This document shows positions 1,032-62,468 of a stretch of DNA of 64,000 nt, in pieces (the stretch's first letter is position 1; every line of letters begins with the position of its first letter). The stretch is from positions 1-64,000 of the forward strand of contig NIVC01001789.1 in NCBI GenBank assembly GCA_002269645.1, read 5' to 3'. The position numbers and the translations under genes were made by a program. The notes under the pieces are model-generated. The model had not been told where the DNA came from. It did not search any database and worked only from the letters and a program-made list of their open reading frames with translations. This DNA is from Macrostomum lignano (lineage: Eukaryota).

Positions 1032-4000
1032 ATCCGCACCGGAGGCTCTCCGTCTGTGGCAGGACGCTCAGCTCTGCGTGGCAGCGGCAGACGGTCTGGT
1101 AAACGTTGCCAGACACGGACCTCTACGCCTGGAGACCGACTTGGAGCTGCTAAATTCCGAGGGTGCGAATGGTTGGCTTATTTTAATCTTTTTTCCTTTC
1201 AACTTGTCTCTGGGGCTATTCTCTTGCTTCAGTTGATACGTACAGCCACTGTGAAGTTATTAACCCTTCACTTTCCAGAGAATCGTTAGACTCCATGCTT
1301 AAATCCGTTATAGCAAGCATCGTAGCTTACCTATGTCGTGTCACCCGTTTCAGCCGAAGCCCCAATACAAGCTGGTTTGGGTCCGAGCTACAGGTTAGCT
1401 GCACCGTACGCTGGCTTCTCTGCTCACGAACTGATTGCTACCGTCACCAGCCTGTGGGACTTTAACGACCAGTCCAACGGAGCAAAAAGCGACGAGGACG
1501 AGGCTACTCTGTCCCGCTGGCGCTCCAGCCTCGGTGGTCTGCTCAACCACCTGCTGTTGGTGAGTTCGACTCGAAGTGGAGCAGCCGCGGCGGCGACAGC
1601 GTCGGCAGGTTCGTCGGCCAGTCAGCATCGCGGTAGACACCTGGCGGTGACCAGACTGTTGACGTTCAGCGAGACGGGGCAACTGTGCGCTCTGCACCTG
1701 CCTATCGGGGTGCCCATCTCACGGCTGTTGTCTAACTCGACAAGACTCACGGATGTTCAGGTGCGCTAAGACTTTGAGTATCAGAGTGTGATTGAGTTGT
1801 AATAAGTTAATTTGCACTGCAGACTATATTATACAAACTAAAGTAGTCGTCTTTGCGGGTCTACGAGAACTTGGGTCTGCAACTTGCCCGTCTGCCCTTA
1901 GTAGAGTGCCAGTTACAGCAACACAGGCGCAGTCTACATGTACAAGGGGCTGTGTGACCGATGCCAGCTGATTAGGCTGAAACAAGCTGCTTGTTTACCA
2001 ACAACTATAAAATTGCCTGTCGGTGAACTTCTCGTGATCCCGTCTTTGTTAACACAGACCAAATTTCAGAGTTTCTGGGTTTTTTAAAGCATCTTTACAG
2101 TTATTTGCGTGTGTAAAAAGCAAAGGCATTGAAAAACATGTTTAAACAGCCTCATAAAACTTCAATCAAATCGGAACCGCCCAGACCTGCGAACTCATCG
2201 ACGGCATGTGCGGCGCACTGGCCCAGCTATCGGACTCTCTCCCGGCGTTTGCGTGTCGTTTTGACTTTTACAAGCTGAAGGTGAGCTGATGTAGCTTGTC
2301 AGTGTTGGGTTTATTTTTCGTCATAATCAATACATGTAATACAGCGGTCCGAAGTACCAAAAAACTTTATTTACATTACCGTATCTTAATGTACAACTGA
2401 CACTTTTTATTGTAAAATTCGAACATCGACGCTTCAAGTTTGCAATGTTCTGAGAAGCTTGTGAAGAAGCCCAATTCGAAATACGACTAACAGTAAGAAT
2501 GACTGACTACACATGCCCTAATATGCAACTGACAACTCAGCCGCAGCTATCGCGTGGCGCATCTGAAGGCTGCGTACGCGTACGGACTGGGGGTCGCCAC
2601 ACACCTTCAATTACCCCAGCTAATTCTGGCAGTGCTAATTAGGCCTAAATCCCGGGATCACACTTGTCCGGGATTCGAAAATCCCGGGATCGACCATTGG
2701 GATCCCGATACCGTTTCGCAATAATTCAATCATTTATTCTCGAATAGTAGTATTTGCAGCTGAGATATTTGTCAGATGAAAATCATAACCCAGTTGTCCT
2801 ACTTTGATTTCTTTATCATTAAAGCATGTGAATAGAAGGCTAGGGCTATAGGGATACAAAACTGAAGCTGTTAGCAGGTTGTGAGGGTATTTAAGGGGTA
2901 ATAATGTAGGACTACTTTAAGCAGTCCTCCCTACCTTCAAAACTTCTTGGCCGTATGTAGTTGGGATTAGAACAGTGGGACCTTGCTATCAGACCACAAC
3001 CCAAGCTACCAATTCTCCATCTAGGGCAAGTGCCCCGAGGGTGAGGTCTGATCCCATTCTACCCTGGTATCAGCTCCTCGGGCCATAGCTCTGTAAGCTA
3101 TCATTCCCAGGTGACATCATATTTAAGTGTGATTTTCCTGAGCTGATACTGGCATGTAAAAAGCATGTCTATTACGCCAGTCCGTGCATCATAACTCCAA
3201 TTCAGAGCTCACGGTCAGTTTCTTGTTTGCAAAATATTTTATTCTGTTCCACTTTTATGATTGAAATCCCTTTTAAAATCAGGTTAGATGGCTACGTAAA
3301 CCAAAATTGGACCAACAAAAATTATAAAATTTTTCAATCCCGGCATCCCGGGATCCCGTCCCAATTCGTCGGGATCCGGGATTGGCCAAGTCCGGGATAT
3401 CCCGATCCCGAGAATCCCGGGATTGGCAAAACTCGGGATTTTGTATTCCCTAGCTGGCACCCCATTTTTACAGCTGGGTGAACTGCAGAGTTAAGTGTGT
3501 CTTGCTCAAGGACACAAATTGTTCCGAGTGGGTCCAGAATCAAACCCCGACCTTTTAGTCGTGAGTTCGGTGCCCTTAACCACAAGGCTACAACCCCTAC
3601 AACCCCTGGACGAGAATGCAATGTACACCGAAGAACACAGGAATGTACAATGGTACCATTTACAGACTGGTTAAAGTTGTCTTGTACAATCGAAGCACAT
3701 GTAGATTAGGTTTAATCTGTGTCCTTCTCTCCACATTCTCAGGTGTCAGTGCTGCCAGGCAATCGAGTGTCCGTAGTCTACAGCCTTCTAGACGACCCCA
3801 TCGATTTTGGCGGTACGCTGCCACCATCATCCACCACGTCGACGGCGACTCTGTTGATAAGAAACGGCAGTCACCATCAGCTACTGGACTGGGCCGTGGC
3901 GCTGCTATTGAAATCGACAGACTCGCTAGCAATTAGTACTAATCGGACTGCTCAGGAGGTGGCGACGCCGGAAGAGTTGCAGAGTCTGTTAACTGCCAAT

Positions 4001-7000
4001 ATAACAGCCTCGCCTTCAACGCGAGCAATTACGGAACGAAGAGAACGTCTCAAAGCCCTAGCCGCTGCTAGTGGGCGTACTCTGGCTATTAATGCCACTG
4101 CCTTGTACCAGAGAGCTCAGCAGGACGATCTCATTCAGGTGAAGCAGACGCTTTTTAACTTGATCGACTGACTTACGACTAAACTTTAATATAAAGTAGT
4201 TTTACCGACATTAGAGCTACGAAATTGATTGTGTTAGCGATGAGCGAACGATAAATTCTTAGGGATGAGCTTCCACCATACAATTCGACCTTACAGGAGC
4301 TGCGACTTCTCGTTCGTCGTGAGCTGTCCGCCATACGGACCGGCGTCTCCACTGAGCGAGCGGCCAAATCGGCGTCCACTTCGACAACGTCGGTCGCAAC
4401 CAGTTCAACAGCTGCAGCCAGGCAAAGCCCGCTTGGCCGATGGGTCCGATTCGACAGACGCATGCGCTCAGTCAGAGAGCGAGCTTTGGCCTGGGCCTGC
4501 CATCTGGACGACGCGTTGCCTGGTGTGGCCAGAGGCGATCAGAACCCGCTGCCGCCGCCTCCGCCGCCGCAGCAGCTGACGATGCAAAAGCCGGTAGGCA
4601 TCGACGCTTCTCTACTGACAGGATCGCTGACTGGCTCGAGCACTTTGGCTAGTGCAGCATTCACTGATTCAGATGTAAGCGTTGGAGCCTTTTGCTCAAT
4701 TCATGTTACCAGGTTTTTTCGTTAGAAATTTTGCTACCTGTTGTGGACAAGCTCTACTATTTGATTATGCTTTATACAAGTGCAAATGAACATGTGCTTA
4801 TGTAGCTAACGCTTGTATATGCAGCTGGGAAGCTGCCTATGGTGCTGACGGCCCTCTCTTGGGTACAGGCCCTCGGAAGGGATGTGAGGCATTGCTACCA
4901 TTTTATACCAAGTAAAAAATATTGAGCTAGCAACCGGAAATGATTGTCATAATTTCAAGACGAAATCCGAGGTTTATGCCTAGAGTTTCTCCTCGTTTTA
5001 GCGTAATATTATACATAATATTAAATATTACAAAATAATGTCCTGGAAAAGCTTTATATCTATGTTTTAATTTAATATGTGATAAGGGGGTTGTAGCCAA
5101 GAGGTTAGAGCGTCGGACTCACGACTTGAAGCTCGGGGGTTCGATTCCCGACCCACTGGAACAATTTGTGTCCTTGAGCAAGACAATTAACTCTGCATTG
5201 CTTCAGTTCACCCAGCTGTACAATGGATGCCAGCATTAGCTGGGGTAATTGAGGGTGTGTGGCGATCCCCCGTCCTTGGACTGAACAGCCGTACGCAGCC
5301 TTCGCAATAGCTGCGGCTGAGCTGTCGGTTCATTATTATTAATTATTATTATTATATCAAGACACTGACATAATGCATGTGCCAAAACATTGCATTTGTT
5401 TGAAACTCTGTTAAAACAGTAAGTGATTCGAGCACGAGTGTTCCTTAGTGGATCATTTTTTCTTAGGTCTGGGAGGCTTTGGTGAGCATTTTTATCCAAC
5501 AACGAGTCTGCTCTTTATTGCTTTGTCATTTCTTTCAGTCGGCAGGTGGAGCCCCGCCCGTACTCGCAGTCACTGGCTGCTCCCGTCGCCTGCAGTTCGG
5601 CGTCATCAATCGGCTGCTAAGACAGCGGACGCTGCCGCCAACCGACGAGGACGGCAGCAGCAGGCGTCTTGGCGCAATCAAACTGCGCCACTCCGAGAGT
5701 CAGCGCCTCGACCTGAACAGGCGAGACCGGCCCTACTACTTGCCGTTGAGAGCGGCGGCTGGGCCCGATGATAGCGACGAGGTCGACGTTGCCGAACAAG
5801 TCGATCGATTTGTCGACTCACTTCCCGAAGACACGGCCACCGCTTGGACCAGCCTGACCTCCGACTGGCTCAGCGTCCAGATCGACAATCCCGTGCTGCG
5901 ATCGGGCCTGACTCTGCTAGCGCCTCCGGAGCAGCTCGTCCGGCTGGGTCGCTACAAACTGTTGAAGTCGGCCGAACCGGTAGCGGTTCTCTGCGTGACT
6001 GAGGAGCCTCCGACTGTTAATGTGAGTGCAGGCTGTTTCGCTGTTCTGGGACCTAAAGTTCACCATGTCTTGTTAATTACTGATACAGAGCAGCATAGTA
6101 TTGCTTTCATAAAAATGTGTCACGCGGCGACTGTTAAAGTGTTAGTGTTAGAAACACCTTTAATATTTAAGTTTTTTTATTGCTGTAGTTAAGCTCTCGC
6201 ATAAATTTGCATAAAGACTGATTTCAAAGCTTTCAAGCTCGCGAGGTCTTTTGTGATGTTTCTAAGTATTCTAAGACACCACTAGCTACCAATAATCGAT
6301 TTATAAAAGTATATAATGATAGCTGGAAAATATCATGTCGTCTAGATATCCATGTTTGCATATAATATTTCCATCTGGGGGGTTGCAGCCTAGTGGTTAA
6401 AGCGTCGGACTCACGACTTGAAGGTCGGAGGTTCGATTCCTGATCTCACTCAGAAAAATTTATGTCCTTGAGCAAGACACTTAACTCTGTATTGCTTCAG
6501 TTCACTCAGCTGTAAAATGGGTGCCACCATTAGCTGGGATAATTGTGGGTGTGTGTGGCGACCCCCAGTCCTTGGACTGAACAGCCTTCAGATGCGCCGC
6601 ACAATAGCTGCGGCTGAGCTGTCAGTTGCACATCTGCCCATCAGGATAAGTGTAATTAATTTATTATTATTATTATTACAATCGATTTCAGCGAAAGAAT
6701 TCCAAAATAAAAATCCCCTTATCACAGGAGCTGCATCACCTGCTGTCTCTGCAAGTGAACTTGCCAAACGTACCCGTTCTGGCCGTCCACTGCAAACCGA
6801 CCGTCGATTCCATCAGCACAGAGCCTGGTACGGAGTCACCGCAACCGCTGCCCAGACCTCAACCGTCGGGTGCCGCATCGCCGGCGCCGAGGCTTCGACG
6901 AGCTCGGTACCGTCTGTCGCGCTTCTCAACCTCGGACGACTTCGATGAGGACACTGGCAGCAGCAGTTCGATTGTCAGCGAGACCCAGCTTCTACTGGAC

Positions 7001-10000
7001 AAGCGCTTAGATAGCCAGCAAATTCGCCGACTTGTCCTCCCGCTGTCCTGCGTTGTTGGCAGCGGCTTCTTCAACGGAGACGGCGGCGCTGCCACCGATG
7101 GCGTCGACCCGATCAGCGGTGGCAGCTACGACGAGACCGTCGCTAGCGATTCTAGCCGGGACACGAGACTGGACGAGGCCGTTGTCGAACTATTAGCCGA
7201 CGCTAATAGATTTGAGTCGGATCAGAGCCTGCAGCGATTGCAGTCGGTTTCTCTGCGCTTGCTAGACTGCTTGGTGAGTAAACACAGTACAGTGGTTGAT
7301 TATCTACAGAAATTCGCCATAGGCTCCGAAAGTTTACGACGATATAAAATTTCAACAGTATAGAGCTTATAAAAGTAACAGCCGTTTTGATTTTTGACAG
7401 TGTAAAATATACACGTAATAAAACTTCAAGCTTGTGGAAATGATTAGCAATATTTTTTGAACTTCCTAGAGTATGCAGCATTGCTAGAAAAAAGCTAGGA
7501 GGGACAAGGACTGGTTCTTCGATAAATTTCTCACTACGAGCGTACCATGGTAGTTTTCCTCGTAAGACTTCATACGCATACCGGGAAATGATTTTTTAAA
7601 TTACTTGCAAAATCCGTCATCCCCTCATTCAGGTGCAGTCGAAAAACACCGAGTCGTTGGAGCTGCTGGCCACCAATGCCGACCGACTAAAGACCCGCAT
7701 TGCTGACGAATTCACAGATGCCAAAGCACGATTGGACTCGGAGAGGACTGACCTGCAGCGCCAATTGTCAGCTGAATTGGCTACGATTCGGCCCCTGGTT
7801 CTGGACGATTGCGGCAGGGTACGACTAGACGATCATCATCATCATCAGCAGCAGCAGCAGCAGAACCAACAGCTGCACAAACGGCTGAATCAGGTAGGTT
7901 TTCTATAAGACCGATGTTGACGAAACTGAAGTAAAATCAGCCGCCTGGAAATTTAGCCTTGAGAAAAACTCCTAACGGTAACTTGTCAGACATTGAAACG
8001 TTGCGGACATTCTATCAAGGTACTAGGTCCTTTTCTTTTGCTCCCAAGGGTTTCTATCGTCAACTCTGCCGAGAAGTTAATTGATTGCAGTCGGTGTGGT
8101 CTGAAGCTTAGCTGTAGGCTTCGTGCTTCAGTTGACGCATCCCCATCAATTCCTTATACGCCCTCAAAATTCCAGACACTCAGCAATCCGATTCACGACG
8201 CGACTCTCCATCAGCGAGACACAGTTTGCAGAGCTCAAATCGAAGCCTGTGCTATCAGCACCTGCGCGGCCATCCTCAAACGAGCAGCCAGTGAGCTCGC
8301 TTCGTCGTACGAGAGTCGTCTAGCCGAGAGACTTTTGCCTGGCGACTTACCTGCAATGCTCTGCGGCCTGTCCAGTGAACGAGTGCAGCGAGTTTTGCAG
8401 CTTCACCTAGCTCGAGACGATTGGGATTCTACGCCGGTGCGATGGCAGGCTGCTAACCCGGGCGCAGACTCCTGCCTGCAGCTGAGCATTGGAAAGGTAA
8501 CTAGCGCAATCTGTACCTGTGATCTGTGAGCTCAAGAGACGAAATCTTTAAAAAATACATTTCGCAGGACTGGAAGACGCTCACCGCTGAGGAGACTCTC
8601 ATGTCAATCGACATGGCCGGCAGCTCAAAACAGATACTGAAGGATCTCACCAGCCGACTTGAGGCTGCAGAGACAGCCGTTCTCAGTCTAGTCAACGACC
8701 GACTCCAGCATAGCCGACAGTTACAGAAACTTTTGGCCAAGTCCTCACCCGATGCTGTCCGTCTCTGGCAGGACGCTCAGCTCTGCGCAGCTGCAGCCGA
8801 GGCACTGTCGAGCGTTGCAAAGTTCGGCCCGCTGCGTCTGGCTGCGGACGGCGAAGGACTCGGCGAAAGTCGGCTGGGTCGGCGGTACCGGGTTGACGGG
8901 CTGTACGCAGGTTTGGCCGAACAGGACCAGCCCGTAGTTGCCACCGTCACCTGTCTGTGGGACTGCGGTGACGTTGCTGGCGCTGGCGGCGGTTCTGACG
9001 TTGACGAAGCCGCAATCGCTCGCTGGCGCAGTGGTCTTGGCGGCCTACTGAACCACCTGTTGCTGACCGGCGATGTCAGCCGCGGAAACTTGGCCGTGAC
9101 GCGGCTTCTGACTTTCAACGACAAAGCTCAGCTGTGCGCGCTGCACGCTCCGCTAGGCAGACCGCTAGCCGACGTGCTCGGTGGCCCAGATCATTTGACG
9201 GACGTTAGCGCCTGCGAAATTGTCGACGGCCTCTGCGGAGCGTTCGCGCAGCTGAACGAGTCCCTGCCTTCCTCGACGTGGAGTCTCGATCGCTCGAAGC
9301 TCAGCGTGAGATTTTTTAGTCAATTAGTTAGGTCGTCTCTAGTCACATGTCAAGGCCCTGTGATGTGTATTGAAATCTAAATAAGGAAGCGCCATTCCAT
9401 ATCCTGGGCCATTGTAAACGCACACCCATACAGATACACACACAGGTACGCATTTACACACGGAGACTTTATCATTGTCAGGAATCTACACGTTCTGTGC
9501 TTTGGGATTGATCCTCCTTTTTAAATGATTTGGGCTGGCCTGATATGGAATTGAACCGACACTTTGACGTAACAGTCAGAGGTCCTTGGTCTAGTTAGCT
9601 ATGGGTAGCTAAGTCTTTCTTTTAAGACACACACCTTTCAGATATTAAAAAAAGATTTTGACTAACAATATAGGTCTGCGAATGCGGCAGTAAAGTTCCG
9701 ACCCGCAAGTTGCTACTATTTGACCTACTGCACGAGCCAGCAATCAACTTCAAAGCTATGATTGGCAAACCAAAGCGCTCCATGCTGAAGCATCAGGATG
9801 GAAGCGGTTCTCAATCTCAGCAGCATCACCTGATTCTACTGGACATCAGTTTGTTAGTGTTGCTGTCGCCTGGAAATCCAGCAGAGTGCCGTCAGCTGCT
9901 GAACCTTGACGATCTCAAACTAAGACGATCTCGGATCAACAATCTTGCCAAAGTCGACACCAGCAAGCAGGCTGTGGAGTCCAGCTTCTTATTGAAGCGT

Positions 10001-10117
10001 TTGATCAGTTTCTACCATGAGAAGCCGAACGAAGTCTGCGCTTCCATTGCCGCAGCCGTGAGGCGCGAGCTATCATATCGGCGTAACGGCGGCGGCGGCG
10101 GAACGTCAAAGGGCTGA
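1032..10117 (+). CDS. Large protein (>=~1400 aa, 5' end upstream of the window) with two degenerate protein-kinase-like domains and coiled-coil/helical segments; join(1032..1162,1354..1760,2185..2280,3743..4138,4297..4674,5539..6021,6728..7273,7633..7893,8176..8496,8568..9305,9674..10117)
   Basis: All listed junctions are GT-AG and phase-compatible, giving one open frame to TGA 10115-10117. Internal paralogy: LRLWQDAQLCVAAA/VRLWQDAQLCAAAA, RWRSSLGGLLNHLLL/RWRSGLGGLLNHLLL, LAVTRLLTFSETGQLCALH/LAVTRLLTFNDKAQLCALH, CELIDGMCGALAQL/CEIVDGLCGAFAQL, VRRELS/VRRELS. Kinase-like call is my pattern inference. Confidence 0.75.
2640..3452. mobile_element. Possible non-autonomous DNA transposon with ATCCCGGGAT-rich subterminal repeats (hAT-like TAGG termini)
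   Basis: Clusters of atcccggga/tcccgggat at 2648-2710 and 3337-3442; right end reads ...gggattttgtattcccta, left end taggcctaaatcccgggat; no clear 8-bp TSD. Confidence 0.45.
3453..3598 (-). mobile_element. tRNA-derived CORE-like SINE, 3'-truncated copy
   Basis: Reverse complement: ggggttgtagccttgtggttaag (A box) ... ggtttgattct (degenerate B box) ... tgtgtccttgagcaagacacacttaactct ... cacccagctgtaaaaatgggg; homologous to the copies at 5086 and 6377. Confidence 0.8.
5086..5355 (+). mobile_element. tRNA-derived CORE-like SINE, full length
   Basis: A box tagccaagagg, B box ggttcgattcc, central gtgtccttgagcaagacaattaactct...cagctgtacaatgg, (ATT)n tail; in an intron of the pseudokinase gene. Confidence 0.85.
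6377..6678 (+). mobile_element. tRNA-derived CORE-like SINE, full length
   Basis: A box cagcctagtgg, B box ggttcgattcc, gtccttgagcaagacacttaactct...cagctgtaaaatggg (resembles the MIR/CORE motif ccttgggcaag.cacttaacctct...ctgtaaaatggg), (ATT)n tail; colinear with the 5086 copy. Confidence 0.85.
9385..9606 (-). mobile_element. Second, older tRNA-headed SINE-like element
   Basis: Reverse complement begins catagctaactagaccaaggacctctgactgttacgtcaaagtgtcggttcaattccatatc (A/B-box-like), then an unrelated body; single copy in the window. Confidence 0.45.
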
Positions 10118-10541: not shown

Positions 10542-11669
10542 ATTGTAGTTTACGAATAGAAAATGCCAAATTAGAGATCTCGGATCTGAGACAGATTCCT
10601 AACAATTAAGAAAAATATAAAATCTGTCAACTGCATTGGTTTATCGGTATGTATGTGTACGTGCGATATTGAGAGATTATAACAAGTTGTATTCTAGAGC
10701 CACGACTAGACGTGGAATCCCATTGTATTCCCTTTCAAAGGGAAATTCCCTTGAAAAAACCTCGATAGGATGTTTCAGTGGAACTTTTTTCAACCAATCC
10801 GGTAATTATCGATACTGCAGTCAGTTTGGCCCGAAGTTGAACATACCCTTTTAGTCACATTGAACATTATGTATTAAAATGCTCGCATAAAGTTATATTC
10901 AATTTTTGTTTAAAACTTTTTTTAAATTTTCACACCAATCACCTGCTAAAGGCAGAAATCTTATCCCAATCTGTTAATGGCTTACGCATACTGGGAATGC
11001 AATCTCTGAAGTTGAAGTCCAATATTGGATACACAATAATTAGGTATAGCTACGAGCGTTTTGATTTTACTTAACCATACCTGTGTGATTGCAATGCAAT
11101 ACATTTTTGTGTTGAGTTGAGCCATTTTTTCTCTTATGGACTTTGCTACTACAGAGTAACGCCTAAAAGCTGACTAAGACGGGTTGTTTCATAATACATT
11201 TTATTCGAGCTGACCCACACTTTATTATCCAGTAAGTGCTTCAACTGATACGCGAAATTTGATATATGAAAATGAAAAGTATACATTTCGTATAAGGTTG
11301 TGTTACATTATTTGTGTTGCGTGCATTACAACCCCTATTTCGAATGCTTTTTTGATGTTTTATACCTAGACAGATCAATTTTAATTCGCCTAAATATACC
11401 CTTGTCACCATGCAATTTGAAGCTTTCAACTGAGAATTAGTTCTGACTGACAGTTCAGCGACAAGTGTTCTCTGATCTGCAGGTCAACGCAATTATTCTG
11501 TCAATCCGAGAGAGTTAGCAATCATGTAGACTCGTTCTTGACTATAAATATAGAGCAAAGGAGAGTCCTCAAGCTGCTGACTGAATAGGTTTTATTACAA
11601 AATGCACCTCCAGTAGTTATTTCTAGCGCACTATAGTTCTATTTAAAAGCATCCGAATCCTACATTGTC

Positions 11670-14600
11670 ATGAAAGTTGCATCACTAGCTCACCTAGTCG
11701 CTATCAGTGAGGCAGCGAACAATCTGACAAGTAGTGTACGCAAGGAGCTCAACGCAGGCAAAGTGACGCCAGAAAGGTCGCGAACGGCTGCTGTGGTTGT
11801 CAGCCTGCCAGTCTCTAGATGGGGAGAAGTTTTTGAAGCTATCCAAGTTAGTTTTTGTTTATTTACAGTAGTAAGCGTCTTATATGCTTTATCATGTTAT
11901 ATACGACCCAAAACTTCATTCCAGACTGCCAATGCAGCCATTGAAAAGGTTGAGTTTCGTTCGAAGAAGGGCGAAAACGGCACTGCAACAGCGTTCGACC
12001 TGTTTGTGCAAATCTGTCTCCCAGAAGACACTGATACGTGCTCTTCGTCTGCGTTGCAGTTATTAAGTAGCTGCGGCAAGGAGGTGCGCTTTCTACATGA
12101 CAGTCGTGACGTAGAGGGAGATAAAATGACAGGTACTACACTTTAGTCTCTTGACATATATATAAGTAATTTGTTTCCCAGAAACCTTGCTCCAAAACTC
12201 GCTCACTTCAGTTGCCGACAATCCTTGGTTTCCGAAAAGCGTAGCCGATTTGGACATTGTGATTAACAGGGTTCTGCTTCTGGAGCAGATGAACGACGTT
12301 GATCATCCCGTGAGCTGATGCACCTTTGAGGCTTTTTGACTTTCATGACAATATTCTACCTTTAATTGCAATTCAGCAGGCACTTTCACGCTATATCCTG
12401 CTTAAACAGAGCATGCAAGACGAGCAGTACAAAACGCGAAGGAAAATGTTTGCCCAACTGGCCTTCGACTACAAGCACGACCAGCCCATTCCGCTGGTGG
12501 ACTACACTGAAGAGGAGAATCGAACCTGGTCCATCGTGTTCAACCGTCTGTGCGAACTCTACGATAAGCACGCTTGCAAAGAGTTCCTGGAGAACTTCAA
12601 GGAGCTGAGAGAAATCGGCCTGTACAGGTAGGAAGTTTGACCGGTTTCACAGATATCTGGCAGTGTTAGTTTGTTTGCTAATCAACGCGACAAGTGGGCG
12701 CAGCTAGCGAGAAGGCAAATAGTTATGCTTTTTCCGCCAAAGAATATCTAGACAGAATGTCCGATCACGCAACAAGCTTGATATAGTAATCAAACTATCA
12801 GACTACTTTTGTGGTGAAGCAGATGAGTTGTTTACAAACAAGACTTGATTGTATTACACATTATCTTCGTCAAACCGATGACTACGCTCGAAGTTTACAA
12901 ATGCGCCTTGAGTGCGATACATAATTTCGCTATCAGTCTACCACTTGTGTATTAGAGCCGATGGTTTGGAAACGTGTCTTGAGTGCATTTGGGGTCTTTG
13001 GGGTCTTTTGCGATGCTTATCGAAGGGTACAGCGTCAGGAACGGTACAATTTATCAGTATGAGATTGTCTTTTCGGTACCTTGCAGCAGGACAGTGGAGG
13101 GGAACAAGAGAACAAGAGAAGAGAGCGGGGAACCGTAGCTAAGGGCCCGCAGCCGCCGGGCGCAGCTCAAGTACAGTACACTTGGGGGTGTGTCACCCCC
13201 CACACACTACCCCCGACGGCAGCTCAGAGAGGGATTAGGTGCTTTCCGCTGACACTTGAGCACACGTCCACATAACAGAAACAAACTCAGCCAAATACTC
13301 ACACAGGTTTTACAGACAGAGGCACTGATTTTCTAGTTGTTGTTGAGCGATAGTCGGCCCTCATTAGCGAGAATCACGGAATCAAGACTGGACATTTAAC
13401 GTGAGAGTATGACGCGTTAATGGCTAAACTACTCTGGCCCAGTGATAATGCCTACTTTTTATCAATAAATCAATAGATCTATAAACCTTCCACCCCGCCG
13501 CAGGAGCGACCGCATTCCGCAGTTGCGCGACGTCTCCGACTTTGTGAGACGCCGCTCCGGCTTCACGCTCCGTCCTGTCGCTGGCTACCTGTCTGCTCGG
13601 GACTTTCTCTCAGCTCTGGCGCTGAGGGTCTTCTGCTGCACTCAGTACATCAGACACTGGGAGAAGCCGTTCTATACACCTGAGCCGTGAGTTGCACAGA
13701 TGAGCTGGACTTCTTCTCAATGGCTGCTCGCCTTGGATACTAACCTGCTTTTACCGTTGGTTACAGAGACTGCTGTCACGAACTACTTGGTCACGTGCCA
13801 ATGCTGGCAGATCCAACATTTGCGCACTTCTCTCAAGAGATCGGCTTGGCATCGCTCGGCGCGTCAGAGGAGGACGTCAAGAAGCTCGCTACGGTTAGTC
13901 AACTCAGCTATTTGATTGACCTCTTAGATGCACACTTGATTGTGCTGCAAGCAGATGATAAAACGCGTGGCCCATCGTTCTTTATTAACGAATTTGATTT
14001 TTCAGTGCTATTTCTTCACCGTCGAGTTCGGACTCTGCAAGGAGGCTGATCAACTGAAAGTATACGGCGCTGGTCTACTGTCGTGTGTTGATGAACTTGT
14101 GGTGAGCCAAGTGGCATGCTAAACCCTATGCTTCATCAAAATGAACAGAAAATGATTTTAAACCCATTTTAACGAGTACAGAGCAGTTTAGCGATAACCA
14201 TGTCTGACTCGCACCACGACAATCTGGTTTGATTCCGTGTGCGGTCCCATTATTAGACCTGGGGTTGTCGCGAGATTCACAGCCATGAGGGACAAACTCC
14301 AAAGCAGGCCTCCTGCAATTAGCTCGTATTCTCATTATTAACGAGTCATGCCATGGATGTGTTCCTTAATACCAAGACTTTCTTAGTAATCAAGGAACAA
14401 TCACTTCTAGCTACTGATAGGCAACCCAGTAATCAATCAATATTATCGCTTACCTTGAAGGTGTTGAATTCTCGTGAGTAGTTCTCCGGAACTTCTTATA
14501 TTCAGTTAGTGCAGGCGCCTGACTTCTGTAGTTCCTGTCCAAGTTCCTTTTATCTGTCTTGAATTGCCTTCGGCCGGTATCTGTAGTTCGGTCCAATAGG

Positions 14601-17600
14601 AAGCTTCGGTTCCAAATAAGCCTTCTCCTTCTAGCAGTGGCTTAATCCACTCTAGGTATAGCTTCGGTAATCACTGATAGTCTTCGGGAGGCTATCAGGG
14701 TAGTCCTTCTGGAGACTACTACCAATAGAGTCTCGAATAGACTCAGTCACAATATCACTCTTGAGTCGACTCAAACAACTAGGGCAAATGAGTAAGGCTT
14801 ACCGCAAATAACTCAGCCGAGTCTTGGTTGACTTGGTCTGAAGGAAGTTCCTCGCCGACTTCCTCTTCGGAGCTCGATCTTCTTCCCTCTGGAAGGTTCT
14901 CGTTGTTGCTCCGGTCCGCTTTGGACCACTTGTATTTATACACAATTTTTTATGAGACATAAATAGCAACATGATTCATCTTTTCGTTATAAATAGTAGT
15001 ATGATTCTTCTTTGCGTTGTGAATAGTAAGGTGATTCGTTGTTCTAAATAGTAACATGCTTCATAGTTTCCGCGCGTGTTTTGCTGCGCATGTTTGCAGT
15101 AGTCTACTTACAGTAGCATTTTATGAATAATTATACTCTACAACAACAACAACAAAATACGATGTCATGATGGTAAAAGTCAGCGTCACAGGGCGCGCTT
15201 CATGGCTTGGGCGCGAACAAAGGCCGCGCCACCGGCAGTGTCGGGGCGCCGGCGTCAGCCAGCAGACAGTCGACATAACGCCGAGTTCGCGCTTGACCTC
15301 GCCGGTAGGGTGCCTGCAGCGTGAGCAGCAGCACCTCCTGCACCGGCTGTGGGCAGTACGACTCGGCGCGGATGAGATGGCCTGCGAGCTGGAGTCGCCG
15401 ACGGCGCAGTAGATCACTTGGACGTGGCAGGCCAGCGCGGCGATAGAGTGCCGCGTTGGTGACTCGCTCGACGCCGATGTTGAAGGCGGCGCGCAGCAGA
15501 CCAGCGTGCGCCGCATCGACTTGCTGTTCGAGTGAGTCCGTCAGCGTCCAGGTCTCGGCGTTGTAGAACAGGACGGTCTCGATCACCGCCTGGAACAGCG
15601 CCGCCTTCTGGCGGTCCGGTAGGGCCTCGGACTGCAGGACTGCCCTCACAGAACGAAAGGCAGCCCAGGCAAGCCCGCGGCGGCGTCGCAGGTCCTCGCG
15701 AGCGTCTGGAACCAGACCGCCGAGGTAGACGAACTGCTGACATCGCGGGAGTTCGGTCGCCTGCCCGTCAGCGCCTCGGCAAAATATTGCAGCCTCGATG
15801 TCGTCCGGCACGCAGAGCACAACGGTCTTCTGCGTGTTGACCACCAGGCCGACACTCGCCGCAACGGCAACCAGCCTGTCCAGCTGCCGTTGGGCGCCCT
15901 CGACGGTCGAGGACAGCAGGGCGAGGTCGTCGGCGTAGCCAAGCACGCTGAGCCGCTTCTCCGGTTGACGTCGACCCACGCGTCGCTGCAGCAGAAAACC
16001 GTCGTCGTCGGTAGGAAGAGCAGTCCGCAGCACCCAGTCAAGCACCAGGACGAACAGGAAAGGCGCCAGCGTATCTCCCTGAAGCACTCCGGAGGATGTC
16101 TCAAAGGAGTCCGATAGGCCGTCCGGTGTTGTCACAGCAGCTGTCGTATCACGGTACATCGCCATGATGGCGGAGATCAGCTGCTCAGGCACGTTGTACG
16201 CGCGGAGCACCATTGGAAGCACGGCTCTGACAACCGAGTCGAATGCCTTCTTGAAATCAATAAAGATTAAAATCAGGATCGACTGACGAATCCGCGCCTC
16301 CTCGATGACTCGGCAAAGAGCCAGGATCTGCGCCACTGTGCCGCGATGGGGCCGGAACCCGTTCTGCTCTGGGCGCAGGTACGGATCCAGCACGGGCTGC
16401 AACCGCGAAAGCAGCATCCGGTTGAACAGCTTCGCTGCACAGGACTGAAGGCAGATGCCTCGATGGTCTTCAAGCCTAGTGGTGCCCGGCTTCTTTGGAA
16501 CAGCGACGATGTGCGCCGTGGTCCATTCGTTGGGCGCCGCCTCACCGAAGAGCACGCGGTTCATCACTCTGGCGACCTCAGCGGCCACACAGGGGATGCG
16601 CAGCGCCTCGATGGGCACCTCGTCCGGACCCAGCGCTTTCCCGCCCGGTGACTGCTGGCGAGCTTGACAACGTCGGCTGCGTTGACTGGGGCTACGCTGA
16701 AACTCTCCTCTGCCGGCAGCGGCGTCTCCGGCGGCAGCGTCAGACTGTCTGGCAGCGGGGTGGCGGCGCGTTGACGATGGCGGCGAAGAACTCGCGCAGC
16801 TCGTTCCTACGCTCGTCCGGCGTGTCACCAGCCAGGTTCAGCGGATTGCGCCGCTTTCGTCCCGTCAGAGCGTTGATGGCGGACCAGGCCACGCGCCCTC
16901 TGGCATCGGGCCCAGCGGCAGAGACAGCCTGAATGGCGTCATCGACAGCCGCTTGTTGGCGCTGCAGGTAGACAGCTGCCAGAGCTGCCTCTGCCTCGCG
17001 GGTTGGTCGCCTGCTCAAGCGGAGCTTCTCCAGATCTTCCCTCGCTGCCTGAATCGCAGGGTCGTCCTGCCAGACCGGCTGCCCACGTTGAGCCAGTTGC
17101 ATCATCGGGACTGCTTGCTCCGCGGCGGTTCTGACTGCAGCGCACACTATCGCATACTCGGCACTTCCACGCTTGTCGCCCAGCGCGGTGTTAAAGGCGC
17201 TAGCAAAGCGACGCTGCGTATCGGTGGCTCTGAGCGCGCGTAGTAGCGCCGCGGTGGCCGCTTCGGCGGACGGTAGAGCGGATCGCGAAGGTTGAGGTCG
17301 CAGATGAGGAGCCGGTGATCGGACCGCAGAGCCAGCGGCGTGATGGTTCGGCAGTTGACGGCGCGACGACGCTCACGGAAACGCACGAGCACGTGGTCGA
17401 GCTGTGCTTGTCTCCGGGTTGCGTTCCTGCCACGCGCGTTCCGTCGCCTCCGCTTGCAGCCCACGAAGGTTGCGAGACCGCTCAGTGGCTTGCGGAAGCG
17501 GGTGTTGGCCGACACCATGTCCTGCCTCTCCAGGAAGTCCTCCAGTGCCTCGGTGTTGTTGTTCCCGCGTGGCGTCACGAACAGCGACCTCTCGGACCTA

Positions 17601-18817
17601 CGCAGGACTGCGTTCAGGTCTCCGAGGGCGACCGCTGTGTCACGCTGCGCCGTCGCCTCTACCTGCACTGAGAGCTGCTCGAAAAACTCTTGAGCCTCGT
17701 CAGGGCGTGTGGCAGGGGGCGCGTACGCGCAGAACAGGCGAGCATTCCGACCGCGTAGCCGGACGTCGATCCGAAGCAACCGAGGGGACAGGGAGACGCA
17801 GCGACAGCTCTGCTGCAGCCTCGGCCCGATCAGCGCTCCAACTCCTCCACGGCCTCGCTGGTCCGCAGAAGTATAGTAGAGGGTCCACCCGGCGCCCAAG
17901 TCCTCACAATGAAGTCCCGGGTCGGCCTTGATAGACACCTCCTGCAGCGAGATGATGTCGCAGCTCAGGTCGTACGCCAGCTTCGCCAGCACCCCTCTAC
18001 GCCAAGCAGCCTTGAGAGTGCGGCAGTTCAGCGTCCCGACCCGAAGCATGCCCTGTGGTACGGCTGGGGCTCGATGCAGTTGAGCCTCGCGGTCCCCGGC
18101 GCCACCCGGAGGATCCGAGTGGACCCGCGCGGCAGCTCGACGGGCGGCGCCACGCAGCCGGCCTCGTCGGTTCCGCTCACGTCGGCGCTCAACACGCCGA
18201 CGGGCGCTCCGCTGCCCTCGCTTGGTCCTGCCGCATTTGGCCGCCGCAGCAGTTAAGCGCGGCTCTCCGCTCTGACCACGAGGAGGTAGCGGCATTTATC
18301 TGCACCGTGGTGCAAATAAATTAAGACATGCAATAAATTGAGTCTTCGCAGTAAGAGACCGTCTTTACGGTAGAGTAGAGTAATTAATTGTAGAGTAATT
18401 AACTGTAGAGTAATTATACTCTACACCATCTGAACATTTTAGCATTCGCTCAGCGAAAAGTCAAACGTATGCGAATTCGAGCCCGAACTTGTTGTGAAGC
18501 AGGAGTGTCGGATTACGACCTTCCAGGATGGCTACTTCTATACATCAAGCTTCACCGATGCCGTGACTAAGATAAGGTAAGACGTCATAAGAAGCGATTA
18601 TTCTATGAATAGCTAATGGAAATTATGCAGAAGTTCGTATTAAATAAATTTCAGGAAGTTTTTCCAATCAGTAGAGCGCCGCCACCAGCTGGTGTACAAT
18701 CCGTTCACCCAGTCTGTTGAGACAATCGCGAGCGTCGCTGATGTCTGTCGACTATTCGAACGCATCAGTTTCGACCTTGATGTTGGACAGCGAATGCTGA
18801 AGAGTCTGGAGCGCTGA
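11670..18817 (+). CDS. TPH: Biopterin-dependent aromatic amino acid hydroxylase, TPH-like paralog A (477 aa); join(11670..11846,11925..12132,12182..12309,12410..12627,13504..13686,13767..13893,14006..14101,18443..18576,18655..18817)
   Basis: Motifs [53 protein letters not shown] (two Fe His), CYFFTVEFG (Fe Glu), [30 protein letters not shown] and ITTFQ are TPH-type rather than PAH/TH-type. Exon total 1434 nt, in frame. Confidence 0.9.
14350..14930. repeat. Unclassified dispersed repeat, copy 2 (in TPH-A intron 7)
   Basis: Colinear, diverged homology to 255-860 over at least the first 250 bp; right boundary approximate. Confidence 0.55.
15143..18410 (-). mobile_element. RTE-type non-LTR retrotransposon (APE endonuclease + RT), near full length, frameshifted
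   Basis: EN motifs [29 protein letters not shown] (17147-18295); RT motifs [46 protein letters not shown] (15200-16828). (TTG)n 3' tail at 15143-15154; 15-bp TSD taattatactctaca at 15128-15142 and 18411-18425. The single ORF is split by at least three frameshifts. Confidence 0.95.
18229..18376 (-). ncRNA. Candidate HDV-like self-cleaving ribozyme at the 5' end of the RTE element
   Basis: Minus strand: P2 ugccgc/gcggca, P3 acc/ggu, L3 uccucgu, P1-3' cagagc, P1.1 gg, P4 gccgc/gcggc, J4/2 gccaa(au). The P1-5' strand survives only as cucu at the junction. Confidence 0.7.
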
Positions 18818-33494: not shown

Positions 33495-35465
33495 TGTTAT
33501 GTTTTGGATATTAATGTTATATTACGGCATAGCTGTCTGTGCTGCGCTTAGTTCGTATCTGCAGCTCTCGTATATTTAGCTTATAAAGACATAAAGCTAA
33601 GGTCATAGACAACTTAATTCGGTCTGTCTGCGACATCCCTTTTTTTTCCAAAAAGAAGTGTCATACGCATTAATGGATGAATGAATGAAAATGGCATTGT
33701 CAGTTAGTTCAGTTTAAGTGCATATAATTATGTAGCCTTGTAAAATGAGTTGGCTTCACTTCACGTCCATATCATGTAATGTATTTTGTTCCACCAGATT
33801 TTCCAGAATCCAGCTGTGAATTGTGTACTGTATCGGACGCATGAGCGTCTGAGCTGTAAGTCTGAATCGTTCCATTGTTAGAATCCTGATTAGGTAGTTG
33901 AATCCTTGAATACTCTGGTATGGTCTGCATTCTGCAGTCTGTATTGCGCTTTGCCAGAAATCTGCAATTTCGTCTGAATTCATGACCTGTAGCAGTTCGA
34001 ACTTTGTATGACCTGTCTGGGTCAGTGACATTGGGTTTCATGATTTCTGCAGGAATCCATTGTCTTCGATCTTCTTGCATCCACACCTGATCTCTATCTT
34101 TAAACGGTCGTAGGTCTCGTGCAGTGTGATTGTAGTAGAATGCCTGTTTACTGTTCTTTGCCAAAATCTCTAGTTCACGTTTTGTCTAGACTTGTCTTGG
34201 TTTCAGCTGTTCAATGGGCAGTGGCAGTTGATATCTGAGCTTTCGTCCCATCACTAGCTCAGCCGGTGTCGGTAGCCCTCTTTCAATTGGCATATTCCGA
34301 TAGTAGTAATGCACAATTTATATCTTCTGCTTTGTTTAGAAATCCTTTAACTGTCTGAACAGCTCTTTCTGATAGGCCATTTGATTGTGGATATTTTGGC
34401 GACGATGTCCTAATTCGTATACCTTTCTGTTCAGCAAACTCTTTAAACCTGTTGGATTCAAATGGAGGTCCGTTGTCACATCTTATCACTTCTGGAGTAC
34501 CATAGGTAGCAAAATATTGTGATAGCTGTTTTATGACGCATTCTGCTGATGTAGTTGTGATCTTATCAGTGCAGATCCATCGACTTAACCTGTCAACCAG
34601 GACAATGTGTGTTTCTCCTTTCCAATAGAAAATGTCAGTTCCACACTCTTGAAATAGATACTCAGGTATTTCAACCATTTTCATGGATTCTTTTTGATGA
34701 AAAGCTTGGTAACTTTGGCATTTTTCGCATGAAAAAATGTATTGCTCAATGTCATGGCGCATTTGAGGCCAAAATACAGATTCAGTAGCCTTCATCAACG
34801 TCTTTTCCATGCCTTGATGACTTTCATGGAGGATTTGAAGCATTTGTCTTCGCATTGCATCAGGAATGAATATTTTGCTGCTCTTGTATATGAGTCTGTC
34901 ATTCTCCATCAGTTCATGCCAAATATTCCAGAATGGCTTCAGTTCTTCAGCTATTTGGGATTTGGCATCTGGCCAACCCTCTCGAATCTGGTCCTTTAGC
35001 TTATGACATAAATTGTCAGCATTTGTGTGATGCTGGATGTCCTTTAGCAAGTTGTCTGGTAGGCATACACGAGCTACTCCAAGTATTTGGCAGTGAATGT
35101 CATCATCAATATCATTGGATGAATGTACGGATTTCAGATAAGCGCGGCTTAGTGTATCCGCAAGGTATAGTTCTTTTCCGGGTACATACGTCACATTGAG
35201 ATCGAATTCTTGAATTTTCAAAGCTAGTCGCTGCAGTCGAGCTGATAGTTCACTCAGTGGCTTTTTCATAATGAATTGCAGGGGCTTGTGATCTGATTCA
35301 ACCTGTACGTGCCGACCCCATAAGTATTGTCGAAATCTGCGACATCTAAAGACTATTGCCAAGAATTCTTTTTCGATTTGAGCATATTTCTTTTGAGCAG
35401 GAGTCATCGATGACGATGCGTATTCAATGATGTGTCCGTCTTGCATCAATGCGGCTCGGAGTCCA
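33495..35465 (-). mobile_element. 5'-truncated Ty3/Gypsy LTR retrotransposon (RNase H-like, integrase, short 3' LTR)
   Basis: YAQIEKEFLAIVF, ESDHKPL, RLQRLALKIQEFD, YVPGKELYLADTLSR, HESHQG, CEKC, DNGPPF, PQSNGLSERAVQTVK; PPT ggaaaaaaaaggga immediately before tgtcg at 33635; putative LTR 33495-33635 (TG...CA); frameshift near 34285; 5' end stops at an (ATT)n run. Confidence 0.92.
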
Positions 35466-36463
35466 TCTTTACTTTTATTGTTATTATTATTATTATTATT
35501 ATTTTCTTTACTATTTAAGAAGCTGCAATATAAGGACAAAAAAGTAACAATAAGATAAAGAGCTCAATTGAAAGCAAATACTATTTGTCTCAGCTGATCC
35601 ATTTCAAGTTGGTAGCAACTTGGATCCTAAACATGCAGGCAAACATCTAAGAGTGTTAAAACCTAAGCTCCCTATGGCATTGTTTTTGTACCACCCTTCT
35701 GTTATGGCCTTTATTATAAAATGACTAAATTGATAACAATTGCAATATGCTAAATTTCTAAGATCTGTGTGTTTGAAATTTGAAATTATTAATGACCATA
35801 CATGCTCAATACCACTGATTTATACCAGCCATGCAACTTACTTTTTGACCAAAAATGCAATTTGTCTATAATAAAAACCTAATAAAAATTAATGTAATTT
35901 TGGGTAAATGGTAGGAGTAAGTATAAATGTATTATTAAGGCTACATGCCTCATCATCTTATTAGTATGCTCTTACTACATCTATTTTTATAGGATAGACA
36001 TTTTTATGACTTACCTTGGCTTTGCCATTTGCTAGCCAGCCAGATTGGCCAGGTGTTTTGCATGTATTTTGGTACCTGATCTATTCAAAGAAAATGTCTA
36101 TAGAGAATATGTGGCCAAATATGAAAAGTACAAATAAGCAAGACACATATTATTAAAATTCTGCATAATGGTTAACATATTAGATAGTAGATAATAGATA
36201 TAATAGATTTTTAAAATTAGTTAGGCCTTATTAATAGATTAATTGTCTATTCAACAACTTCATGTTTTATATATCTATTCCTTTATGAATTTAAAAAACT
36301 CTAAATAGCAACCAAGATGCTGTTTCTACCCTTTATATAGTTAAGCTTCTCTAACCAATTGAAGTTGTAGAAGTCTAAGTTTATTGATTAATCAAGGCTT
36401 CTAAGTGAAGTTAATTACAAACAATGAGACTAGTATAAAAATGCATCTCTCTATTTGCTATTT

Positions 36464-44300: not shown

Positions 44301-47300
44301 GGTAAACGGGGAGGGTAACGTTAGTTGTCAATACGAGTATATATTGTAATGCCTCATTATCTAATTAGTTATTTCAACTTATTTGTAGATTTGAAATTAT
44401 CGTATCAGGGTAACCGGCGAGAGTAACTATAGCTGTTAAAGCATATATAAATGCCTCGTCAGCTAACAAATTATTACTAACATGCTACTTTCAGTAGCGT
44501 ACCTAGAAAATAACACTGAGTATTTTCCCGACACGCAGGGCGAACCAGACGGGATACACGCGGCGGACGCCAATGAAGAAGACATTGTTGAAGCTGAAGG
44601 CACAGTTCTAGTTCACTTATTGTACACTATTCGGTTGAGTCCAACTCTGTCTGCTGAGCTGCTTAAAGTGTTGCGATCGCTTCCACTGGCACAGCTGTTG
44701 CGTCCGTTCTCCTTGGCGCTTTATTTTGTGCTGGTATCCGCTAGGATGGATGACGATATGCACAGGCCTTTGAGGCTTATTGTTGCCAGGTAAATTAACT
44801 GTTGATGCTTTAATAGTACATAATTACATGTCTCTCTATCTTCCAAAATTGATAAAGCATCTAGAGTGGAAGCTGCACGGTCCAAGGTGGAGGGTGCAGA
44901 TTCTAAAAAGGATGGGTGCAGATTCCTAGGTGGAGGGTGCAGATTCTAAGGAGGAGGTTTGAGATTTTAAGTAGGAGGCTGCAGTTTCCAAGGTGGAAGG
45001 TGCAGATTCCAAGTATGAGGGTGCAGATTCCAAGTATGAGGGTGCAGATTCCAAGTATGAGGGTGCAGATTCCAAGTATGAGGGTGCAGATTCCAAGTAT
45101 GAGGGTGCAGATTCCAAGTTTGAGGGTGCAGATTCCAAGTATGAGGGTGCAGATTCCAAGTTTGAGGGTGCAGATTCCAAGTATGAGGGTGCAGATTCCA
45201 AGTATGAGGGTGCAGATTCCAAGTTTGAGGGTGCAGATTCCAAGTATGAGGGTGCAGATTCCAAGTATGAGGGTGCAGATTCCAAGTATGAGGGTGCAGA
45301 TTCCAAGTATGAGGGTGCAGATTCCAAGTATGAGGGTGCAGATTCCAAGTATGAGGGTGCAGATTCCAAGTATGAGGGTGCAGATTCCAAGTATGAGGGT
45401 GCAGATTCCAAGTTTGAGGGTGCAGATTCCAAGTATGAGGGTGCAGATTCCAAGTATGAGGGTGCAGATTCCAAGAGATAGGGTGAGGAGTTCAGGCAGA
45501 GGAGTGCAATATTCCAGGCTAGAGTGGAGACTATATAGACAGTGAATTCTCTCCAGGTACTATCAGGAGCGATGCCTACGCAGTGAGTCCGTCTTCCTTC
45601 GCTCGTTCCCCGACCCATTGAGCAATGCAGCGGCAGCTGGTGCTGCTGATGCTGACAGCGAGGGCAGCGGCAGTGGCAGCGGTGGCATCAGCGATCCAAT
45701 AGTGTCCGCCTTTGACATTGTGGCCACCCGAGCTGCCCGACAATGGGACAATATTGTACCTGGCCTGGTTGGTTTCGCATTCAGCTGTTTAGAGGTGCAG
45801 CAGCAGCAGCAACAGCAGCAACAGCAAAGCTATCAGACTAGCGCCGGAATCGCCGCGGCCCGAGCTGTCAATCGACTCGGTCGGGAGCTTCTAGTTCGAC
45901 TGTATCGTCGGGCCGAAGCAGCCCGGGAGACTATCCTGAGCGAGGCGGTTGCACTGTTGCTCACTACAGGCGGGAGTAGGCCGTTGGCTAATCTGCTTCG
46001 CACTCTCATTGCCAGGTATCTAATTTACACCATTGCCATATAGTTTCAAGCATTTAACTGTAGGAGTGGGCCTGTATACCTTTACGTAATTACCTGAGAT
46101 CTAGACTCTAAATGTATTTTAACAGACTGGCGTTTTAAAGACATTCTAGACATCCTATTGCCATTCTAGAGACCCCCGATATTTCCATTCTAGACCCCCG
46201 ATATTTCCATTCTAGAGGCCCGGTGCAATTCTAGAGGCCCGGTGCAATTCTAGAGGCCCGGTGCAATTCTAGAGGCCCGGTGCAATTCTAGAGGCCCGGT
46301 GCAATTCTAGAGACCCCGGTGCTATTCTAGAGGCCTGGTGCTATTCTAGAGACCCCGGTGCTATTCTAGAGACCCGGTGCAATTCTAGAGGCCCGGTGCA
46401 ATTCTAGAGGCCCGGTGCAATTCTAGAGGCCCGGTACAATTCTAGAGGCCCGGTGCAATTCTAGAGACCCCGGTGCAATTCTAGAGACCCGGTGCAATTC
46501 TAGAGACCCGGTGCAATTCTAGAGACCCCGGTGCTATTCTAGAGACCCGGTGCAATTCTAGAGGCCCGGTGCAATTGTAGAGACCCCGGTGCAATTCTAG
46601 AGACCCGGTGCAATTCTAGAGGCCCGGTGCAATTCTAGAGACCCCGGTGCTATTCTAGAGACCCGGTGCAATTCTAGAGACCCCGGTGCTATTCTAGAGG
46701 CCTGGTGCTATTCTAGAGACCCCGGTGCAATTCTAGAGACCCGGTGCAATTCTAGAGGCCCGGTGCAATTCTAGAGGCCCGGTGCAATTCTAGAGGCCCG
46801 GTACAATTCTAGAGGCCCGGTGCAATTCTAGAGACCCCGGTGCTATTCTAGAGACCCGGTGCAATTCTAGAGGCCCGGTGCAATTCTAGAGACCCCGGTG
46901 CTATTCTAGAGACCCGGTGCAATTCTAGAGGCCTGGTGCAATTCTAGAGACCCCGGTGCTATTCTAGAGACCCGGTGCAATTCTAGAGGCCCGGTGCAAT
47001 TCTAGAGACCCCGGTGCTATTCTAGAGACCCGGCGCAATTAGCCCATTCAAACCCCCATTATCATAACTGCACGTCATCCCATGCTCAGGTACCCAACTC
47101 TCGTTCTAAAGCAGCACGAGATGCTGCGAGCAAATCTAGATAGTCTATTAGCTACACTGCCTGAATCGGTTGCCGTGGCAACGGTTGCTAGCCTGGCGCC
47201 GCTGTTGCGTTGGTCCAGCCGTCTAAGAGACTCGCTGATCATGTGCCTGCGCAAGTGTCTGTACGCCCGTCAGGACGGCATCAGACGGATGGCGTTGCGC

Positions 47301-50300: not shown

Positions 50301-51197
50301 ATAATAGTAGTACAGCTGCGGCTGATACTAGCGGCGTTGGCGCTGGCCCGGCGCCGATCTCGATGACTGTGCACCGGTGCGTTCATCGAGTGATGCAGGT
50401 AGGTTTTTATGTTAATGTCGATATTTCCTTTTTAGTGAATTAATCGATTTTTTCATCGTTTTTTATTAGATTATCGTTTTTTTTAATTGTCGATTTTTAT
50501 TTGATTATCGATTTTTTTCGATGGTAGATTTTTATTAGATTATTGATTTTTTCGATTATCGATTTTTTATATTATCGATTTCCATTTACATTATCGATTT
50601 TTACTAGATTTTCAGTTTTAATATCGATTATTTCGGTCGATTATCGATTTTTTTCGAGTTTTATTAGATTATCGATTTTAATTATTAGATTAGATTATCG
50701 ATTATTTCGATAGATTATCTTTTCTTTTGATTATTTATTTTTATTAGATTATCGTTTTTTCGATCATCGATTTTATTATATTATCGTTCTTCCACTATCG
50801 ATAATTTCTACTGACGCGCCTTAACACAGGCTGCCCTAAGCCTGGCCTCGGCTATCTCTGATCGCTGGACAGGGCGTCAGCTCAACTCCGTCTCAATCAA
50901 CAGCCAATCGCTGGCCGACAATCTGCGCCATTGGACCGCCGCCCTAGTTCGCACCGGGGAGCCCCGGCACGGCCGGGACCTGGCCCAGCTAGCCGGCTTT
51001 CTGCTCTGCCTGGATCCCGGCCAGGCCTACCTGCACTTTGCCGAGTCCCTGCTGCGCTCCGAGGCTGTTGCTAATAGCGCTCTCAAAGACGATGCCGCCT
51101 CTACTAGGGCTGTGGCGGCCCTGTTGGCTAGGAACTGCGTTCGGCATCACCCGCTGCCTGGGGACCACCTGATGGCGCTGGCTGGGTGAGGACAGTG

Positions 51198-59535: not shown

Positions 59536-59645
59536 CCAGAAGCACAGTTTAATTATTTATGCTAAAATCTGAATTAAAGTTGGCAGCTAATTTCACAGCT
59601 TTTAACGCCATTGCACCCCACAGCACACAAAGATCAGACACACCG

Positions 59646-62342: not shown

Positions 62343-62468
62343 GTAACTTGTATGCGTGTATTGGAATTGCTTGGTGCAGTGCGTAGTTCATAGCGCATGT
62401 TTGCTAAGCTGCGAGTTTCTGTCAGTGAAGATTACGACTAATTACCTGGGAGACTACAGTGTGTAGTG

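Follow-up and report, generated by a model that had tools for sequence, protein, structure and literature searches.

A flatworm gene encoding two head-to-tail DSTYK-like units, one with a decayed dynamin-like G domain

The window analyzed here, the first 64 kb (64,000 nucleotides) of Macrostomum lignano contig NIVC01001789.1 (C1789), carries on its forward strand, at 1032-10117, eleven exons of a gene whose start falls outside it. We found that this gene encodes a doubled member of the invertebrate DSTYK-like family. The full protein of 2,149 residues (a model that adds 5' exons to the window exons and mixes two copies of the locus) consists of two units of ~1,100 and ~1,040 residues, each collinear over its full length with two paralogs made of a single unit, P0002 (on C440, C978, and C906) and P0003 (on C1285, C410, C4095, and C4168), and its homology to the family is significant over the GTPase (G) domain and stalk of both units. 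A first-pass annotation, made from the letters of the window, had described two paralogous units of ~250 residues in a protein of no recognizable family; the duplication stands, but the units measure ~1,050-1,100 residues and the protein matches DSTYK/Dusty-like proteins. The order of parts, namely N-terminal helix, Dynamin_N G domain, helical stalk, and C-terminal kinase-type domain, is that of DSTYK/Dusty and of DSTYK-like proteins from Nematostella (XP_032222785.1), Lingula (XP_013414054.1), Tubulanus (XP_074648888.1), and Branchiostoma (XP_019629833.1). Unlike these, the present protein is doubled in one chain, its kinase-like domains have drifted beyond sequence detection, and its G motifs are lost in part (unit 1) or wholly (unit 2). 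None of the 161 proteins collected is a doubled DSTYK-like protein; those with two G domains in that collection are other proteins, two of them named as Bacillales dynamin-family proteins of ~1,200 residues. A literature search, with most subscription journals outside its coverage, turned up no paper whose title or abstract deals with a dynamin-like domain of DSTYK or with a doubled protein of this kind. We conclude that the head-to-tail doubling with one decayed half is new, in a family already named in databases; the find is a lineage-specific elaboration in one species, and the doubling probably arose independently, by internal duplication in a flatworm lineage.

The eleven window exons all have GT-AG introns and can be joined without a phase break into 1,399 codons that end in a single stop, which bears out the single frame of about 1400 codons first proposed. 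Two stretches of the product are paralogous (40% identity over 293 columns, E 2e-47) and share a phase-0 intron, at 2280 and 9305, as had been claimed. The locus is present three times in the 764-Mb genome (C1789, C1938, and C51). Positions 1-1031 of the window are the tail of a 5' intron, and the six coding exons that lie beyond the contig start were located, in phase and stop-free, on the sister copies (G000:C1938, L012 3677-8529; and C51), with the first four also on C2689. These exons, whose absence the first pass had noted, supply the start codon, the N-terminal helix, the unit-1 G domain with P-loop GAPTSGKST and INKID, and the stalk, and with them a second G domain whose P-loop is intact.

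We compared the gene with spliced contigs from public sequencing runs, whose RNA nature is a guess: four runs from four studies against the window and four runs from two studies against the C51 copy, six different runs in all with 24 listed. At the predicted sites, which in the window are GT-AG, spliced contigs join nine of the ten introns of the window and three of those upstream, a fourth upstream joint is backed by loose contig ends, and the joint from the upstream exon to 1032 appears in three of four runs. The exon at the unit boundary (4297-4674) is connected by spliced contigs to both neighboring exons; its joint to 5539 is seen in two of four runs, in one of which the shorter side measures 118 letters, and a loose end of 13 letters in a third run agrees with it. 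The listed joints do not include the intron 7893|8176, and contigs of three runs carry 42 unplaced letters past that point, beside a skipped CAG repeat. The two units therefore belong to one transcript, as far as short contigs tell, and the junction check that had been suggested for this gene comes out in favor of a single transcript, unit boundary included.

The two G domains are unequal. The upstream exon that carries the P-loop GAPTSGKST (L012:5000-5188) matches Pfam Dynamin_N at 31.1 bits (cut-off 27). The unit-2 G domain is the most diverged (23-26% identity to the others, 26-29% to unit 1) and is met by the family profile only, at 7.5 bits over 135-239; exon 5539-6021 alone has no Pfam match. 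The helical stalk is homologous to that of the family: the DSTYK-like profile extends over positions 52-590 of unit 1 and 326-660 of unit 2. In unit 1, G1 (GAPTSGKST) and G4 (NKID) are kept, while the G2 Thr is lost and the G3 Asp has become Glu (the columns read DKG and EVPE), as in both paralogs; among the full-length invertebrate homologs scanned, in all 28 of which Pfam finds Dynamin_N, the G2 Thr is kept in 25 and the G3 Asp in 26. In unit 2, all four motifs are lost. By the usual roles of these motifs in GTPases, we infer that unit 1 still binds guanine nucleotide and hydrolyzes it poorly, because G1 and G4 are kept and G2 and G3 altered, and that unit 2, its motifs all lost, would be a nucleotide-free structural partner. 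The stretch at 5539-7273, earlier taken as a linker, is the decayed unit-2 G domain followed by stalk. In the structural model of a paralog, the stalk aligns with bacterial dynamin-like protein (BDLP) and mitofusin and is of BDLP/mitofusin type.

The C-terminal domains are likely catalytically dead and, as judged from their place in the chain, a common intron, and a weak profile match, likely kinase-derived. They occupy the place of the kinase in DSTYK-like proteins, and the phase-0 intron of both units is common to active DSTYK-like kinases in the same genome. A collinear 270-column alignment scores above shuffles, and the paralog model shows an N-lobe, hinge, and alpha-E pattern and a match to FAK. 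The beta-3 positions read VATVTC and IATVTS and the catalytic-loop positions SLDRSKLS and RFDFYKLK; the beta-3 Lys and the HRD Asp, by which we would recognize an active ortholog of canonical DSTYK, are both missing, and Pfam finds no kinase in either domain. The first-pass reading of kinase-derived domains without beta-3 Lys and HRD is thus probably right, but one of its details falls and another is in doubt: the Gly-loop it had written out is not conserved between the units, all four flatworm units having no more than the third Gly in common, and the Asp of FDLL in unit 2, which it had counted with YSL as replacing DFG, may be the DFG Asp and so perhaps kept (the register is uncertain). Loss of kinase motifs is frequent in the family: HRD/DFG is absent from 23 of the 28 homologs and HRD kept in 5, so that kinase-dead and kinase-active members coexist across invertebrates.

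Both halves are under constraint. Between the window and C1938, we counted 41 synonymous and 38 nonsynonymous differences (pN/pS 0.32, p 7e-7), and for unit 2 alone 19 of each (p 0.001); between C1938 and C51, the upstream exons differ at 14 synonymous and 2 nonsynonymous sites (pN/pS 0.04). Constraint is strongest on the unit-1 G domain and stalk (0.04 versus 0.32, p 0.011). By these counts, purifying selection maintains the apparently dead half, though more loosely than the G domain and stalk of unit 1. Because the gene is retained under selection after kinase chemistry was lost twice and G motifs once, the dynamin-like body is suggested to carry a function of its own.

What that function might be is best approached through other dynamin-like systems. 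In Bacillus DynA, two unlike halves are fused head to tail and perform poorly when separated (10.1101/363689), and paired bacterial dynamin-like proteins tether membranes (PMC6104087). Like our protein, DynA ties two unequal dynamin-like units in one chain (10.1101/363689; PMC6104087), a feature carried here by the in-frame junction exon 4297-4674 with joints on both sides; the BDLP-type fold of the unit is a further likeness. The available text on DynA describes two GTPase domains and no kinase-like domain, whereas in our protein one of the G domains is dead and both units close with a kinase-like part; with the unit-2 motifs lost, the two intact GTPase domains of a DynA-type protein are not found, and the protein is not a member of that group, although it may work like DynA. 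Compared with Nostoc BDLP (2j68/2j69) and mitofusins (6jfk, 5gof), it has no transmembrane segment that we could see, an additional C-terminal domain, and altered G2 and G3. Mmc1 of fission yeast, a dynamin-related pseudoenzyme without GTP-binding residues, is a membrane scaffold (10.1101/2023.10.03.560745) and so provides a precedent; it is of an unrelated lineage, a single unit, and located at the mitochondrial inner membrane, and the available text mentions no kinase-like part. Vertebrate DSTYK, whose long N-terminal part has been termed 'non-catalytic regions', resides on late endosomes and lysosomes, which enlarge upon its overexpression (PMC6981171); a second source gives the same location and places its signaling at late endosomes (PMC11933320).

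The first pass had also been reminded of MLKL. In MLKL, a short four-helix bundle and brace stand directly before the pseudokinase. Helices followed by a dead kinase-like domain are alike in both, but here the helices form a ~300-residue dynamin-like stalk behind a G domain; the DSTYK-like homology of this stalk and its BDLP/mitofusin alignment in the paralog model do not support an MLKL-type pseudokinase, and no MLKL chain is among the matches listed.

We propose, at about even confidence, that the two head-to-tail DSTYK-like units of this ~2,150-residue protein would form a dynamin-like heterodimer held together by its covalent chain, which would scaffold or tether membranes and phosphorylate nothing; catalysis would be slight or absent, and both dead kinase folds would serve as docking sites. 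The analogy with vertebrate DSTYK makes late endosomes or lysosomes the likely site of action. The DynA fusion, the paired bacterial proteins, Mmc1, and the location of vertebrate DSTYK are the grounds for this proposal, and the loss of the unit-2 GTP-binding motifs together with the likely death of both kinases makes a scaffold more probable than an enzyme. Several results weigh against it. Membrane binding is drawn entirely from analogy, and the sequence shows no clear transmembrane segment (the highest hydropathy over 19 residues is 1.2 and 1.4). Every contig falls short of the full gene, and in run X1 one of them continues into intron 5. For the kinase folds, the slice that beats shuffles contains the last stalk helix; the FAK match lies where the predicted local distance difference test score (pLDDT) is mostly <60, and it is partly circular because the alignment behind the model held kinases. 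A kinase-only hidden Markov model (HMM) built from the homologs scores below 0 against either unit, hhalign probabilities are all <2%, the first local run scored 17.0 against a column-shuffle maximum of 18.0, and a score of 17.2 against the eight-member pseudokinase subgroup falls within shuffles (maximum 20.6). Finally, the intron sits at the catalytic-loop register in full-length MAFFT and hhalign alignments but 16-25 columns off in three of three MAFFT runs on C-terminal slices.

A bolder form, which we hold as tentative and rather doubtful, makes the protein an animal counterpart of DynA of its own origin: a nucleotide-binding half hard-wired to a dead half, with pseudokinase caps, that would tether or fuse endolysosomal membranes as a pre-formed heterodimer. 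If this is true, the DSTYK family would be at heart a membrane-remodeling dynamin family in which the kinase is dispensable. In any case, a natural fusion of a live-looking and a dead unit is a handy construct for studying how such units pair.

The protein could instead be a signaling scaffold or decoy that co-assembles, through its stalks or dead kinase folds, with active DSTYK-like kinases and tunes or blocks them with no membrane work. We consider this rather unlikely, although suitable partners exist: the genome holds a separate canonical-looking DSTYK kinase (C2744 and C180, L032) and DSTYK-like genes with intact HRD and DFG (C677, C921, and C1103), and the coexistence of dead and active members in invertebrates, the missing membrane anchor, and the late-endosomal signaling of vertebrate DSTYK all speak for it. 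Against this, constraint peaks in the G domain and stalk of unit 1, a pattern that suits a dynamin-type role no less well. It is decidedly unlikely that membranes are remodeled by unit 1 as an active mechanochemical GTPase, with unit 2 passive or decaying and a unit-1-only isoform doing most of the work. Such an isoform could be read from the X1 contig that leaves exon 5 for intron 5 and there meets a stop at ~4725, and the kept G1 and G4 and the divergence of the unit-2 G domain agree with an active unit 1 and a passive unit 2; but the G2 Thr and G3 Asp that most homologs keep are lost, unit 2 is under purifying selection, and run X1 also covers intron 9339-9703, suggesting unspliced RNA. Very unlikely, last, is a C-terminal domain that is no longer, or never was, a kinase fold and that stands as a different or remodeled domain at the same place in the chain, since the missing Pfam and HMM matches and the weak, alignment-dependent profile evidence that favor it are opposed by the shared intron, the collinear alignment above shuffles, the Gly-loop, whose third Gly is invariant, and the pattern of N-lobe, hinge, and alpha-E in the paralog model.

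Along the forward strand of the window, the eleven exons divide as follows, the kinase-like motifs being placed by alignment. Exon 1032-1162 holds the last stalk helix of unit 1 and the start of its kinase-like domain (~1114); 1354-1760 the N-lobe-like part, with the putative Gly-loop position at ~1371-1391, the beta-3 position without Lys at ~1434-1451, and the hinge; 2185-2280 the alpha-E-like helix and the catalytic-loop position RFDFYKLK, without HRD, up to the shared phase-0 intron; and 3743-4138 the C-lobe-like part, with YSLL at the DFG position. The junction exon 4297-4674 joins the end of unit 1 (VRRELS, ~4312) in frame to the N-terminal helix of unit 2 (~4432). Exon 5539-6021 is the first half of the decayed G domain (P-loop position VTGCSRRLQFG at ~5569, G3 position LLAPPE at ~5914), and 6728-7273 its second half (G4 position VHCKP, no NKxD), a Pro/Ser-rich insertion, and the stalk start. 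Two exons, 7633-7893 and 8176-8496, encode the helical stalk (family profile 35.4 bits, unit-2 residues 421-760), 8568-9305 the last stalk helices and the kinase-like domain from ~8823 to SLDRSKLS (no HRD) at the shared intron, and 9674-10117 the C-lobe-like part (FDLL at the DFG position, alpha-F-like helix at ~9830) and the stop codon.

Some smaller observations concern the locus and its relatives. An alternative in-frame donor 9 nt downstream (1162/1171) is used in one of four runs. The C51 copy of exon 8568-9305 has a one-base gap ~601 nt in that shifts the frame, due either to an assembly error or to a broken copy. A tandem repeat with a 15-bp period takes up the intron ahead of the P-loop exon (L012 4500-4990 of G000:C1938; also C51 and C2689); the reading frame is open throughout, and spliced contigs omit it. 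A short interspersed repeat of tRNA-like look and, in the runs compared, very high contig depth, likely a short interspersed nuclear element, lies within several introns (~2500-2640, 3450-3600, 5050-5330, and 6400-6650). The M. lignano UniRef entry P0001, a fragment, is near-identical to this gene (96%); it, P0156, and P0157 are fragments of the gene that begin at exon 8176 and are named 'PI3K/PI4K domain-containing protein', a label that for P0001 has no Pfam support. Elsewhere in the genome, C677, C921, C1103, and C2636 (L031, L033, and L034) hold DSTYK-like head-to-head pairs with an intact P-loop and, where seen, intact HRD/DFG, and C390 (L035) holds another G-domain gene. The unnamed protein P0125 (1,067 residues) has a kinase ahead of a bacterial-type dynamin-like protein, the reverse of the DSTYK order.

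In the rest of the window, an aromatic amino acid hydroxylase gene (Pfam Biopterin_H) lies directly downstream on the forward strand (~11460-14200). A LINE-like element with endonuclease-like and reverse-transcriptase-like frames (YADD motif) occupies 15200-18295 and an integrase-like frame of long terminal repeat type 34283-35563, both on the reverse strand. We also noted a fibrinogen C domain (26089), a CDK-like kinase (37427), a weak FANCI-like match (~45500-50400), cytochrome b558 alpha (56410), and COG7 (59553-62346).
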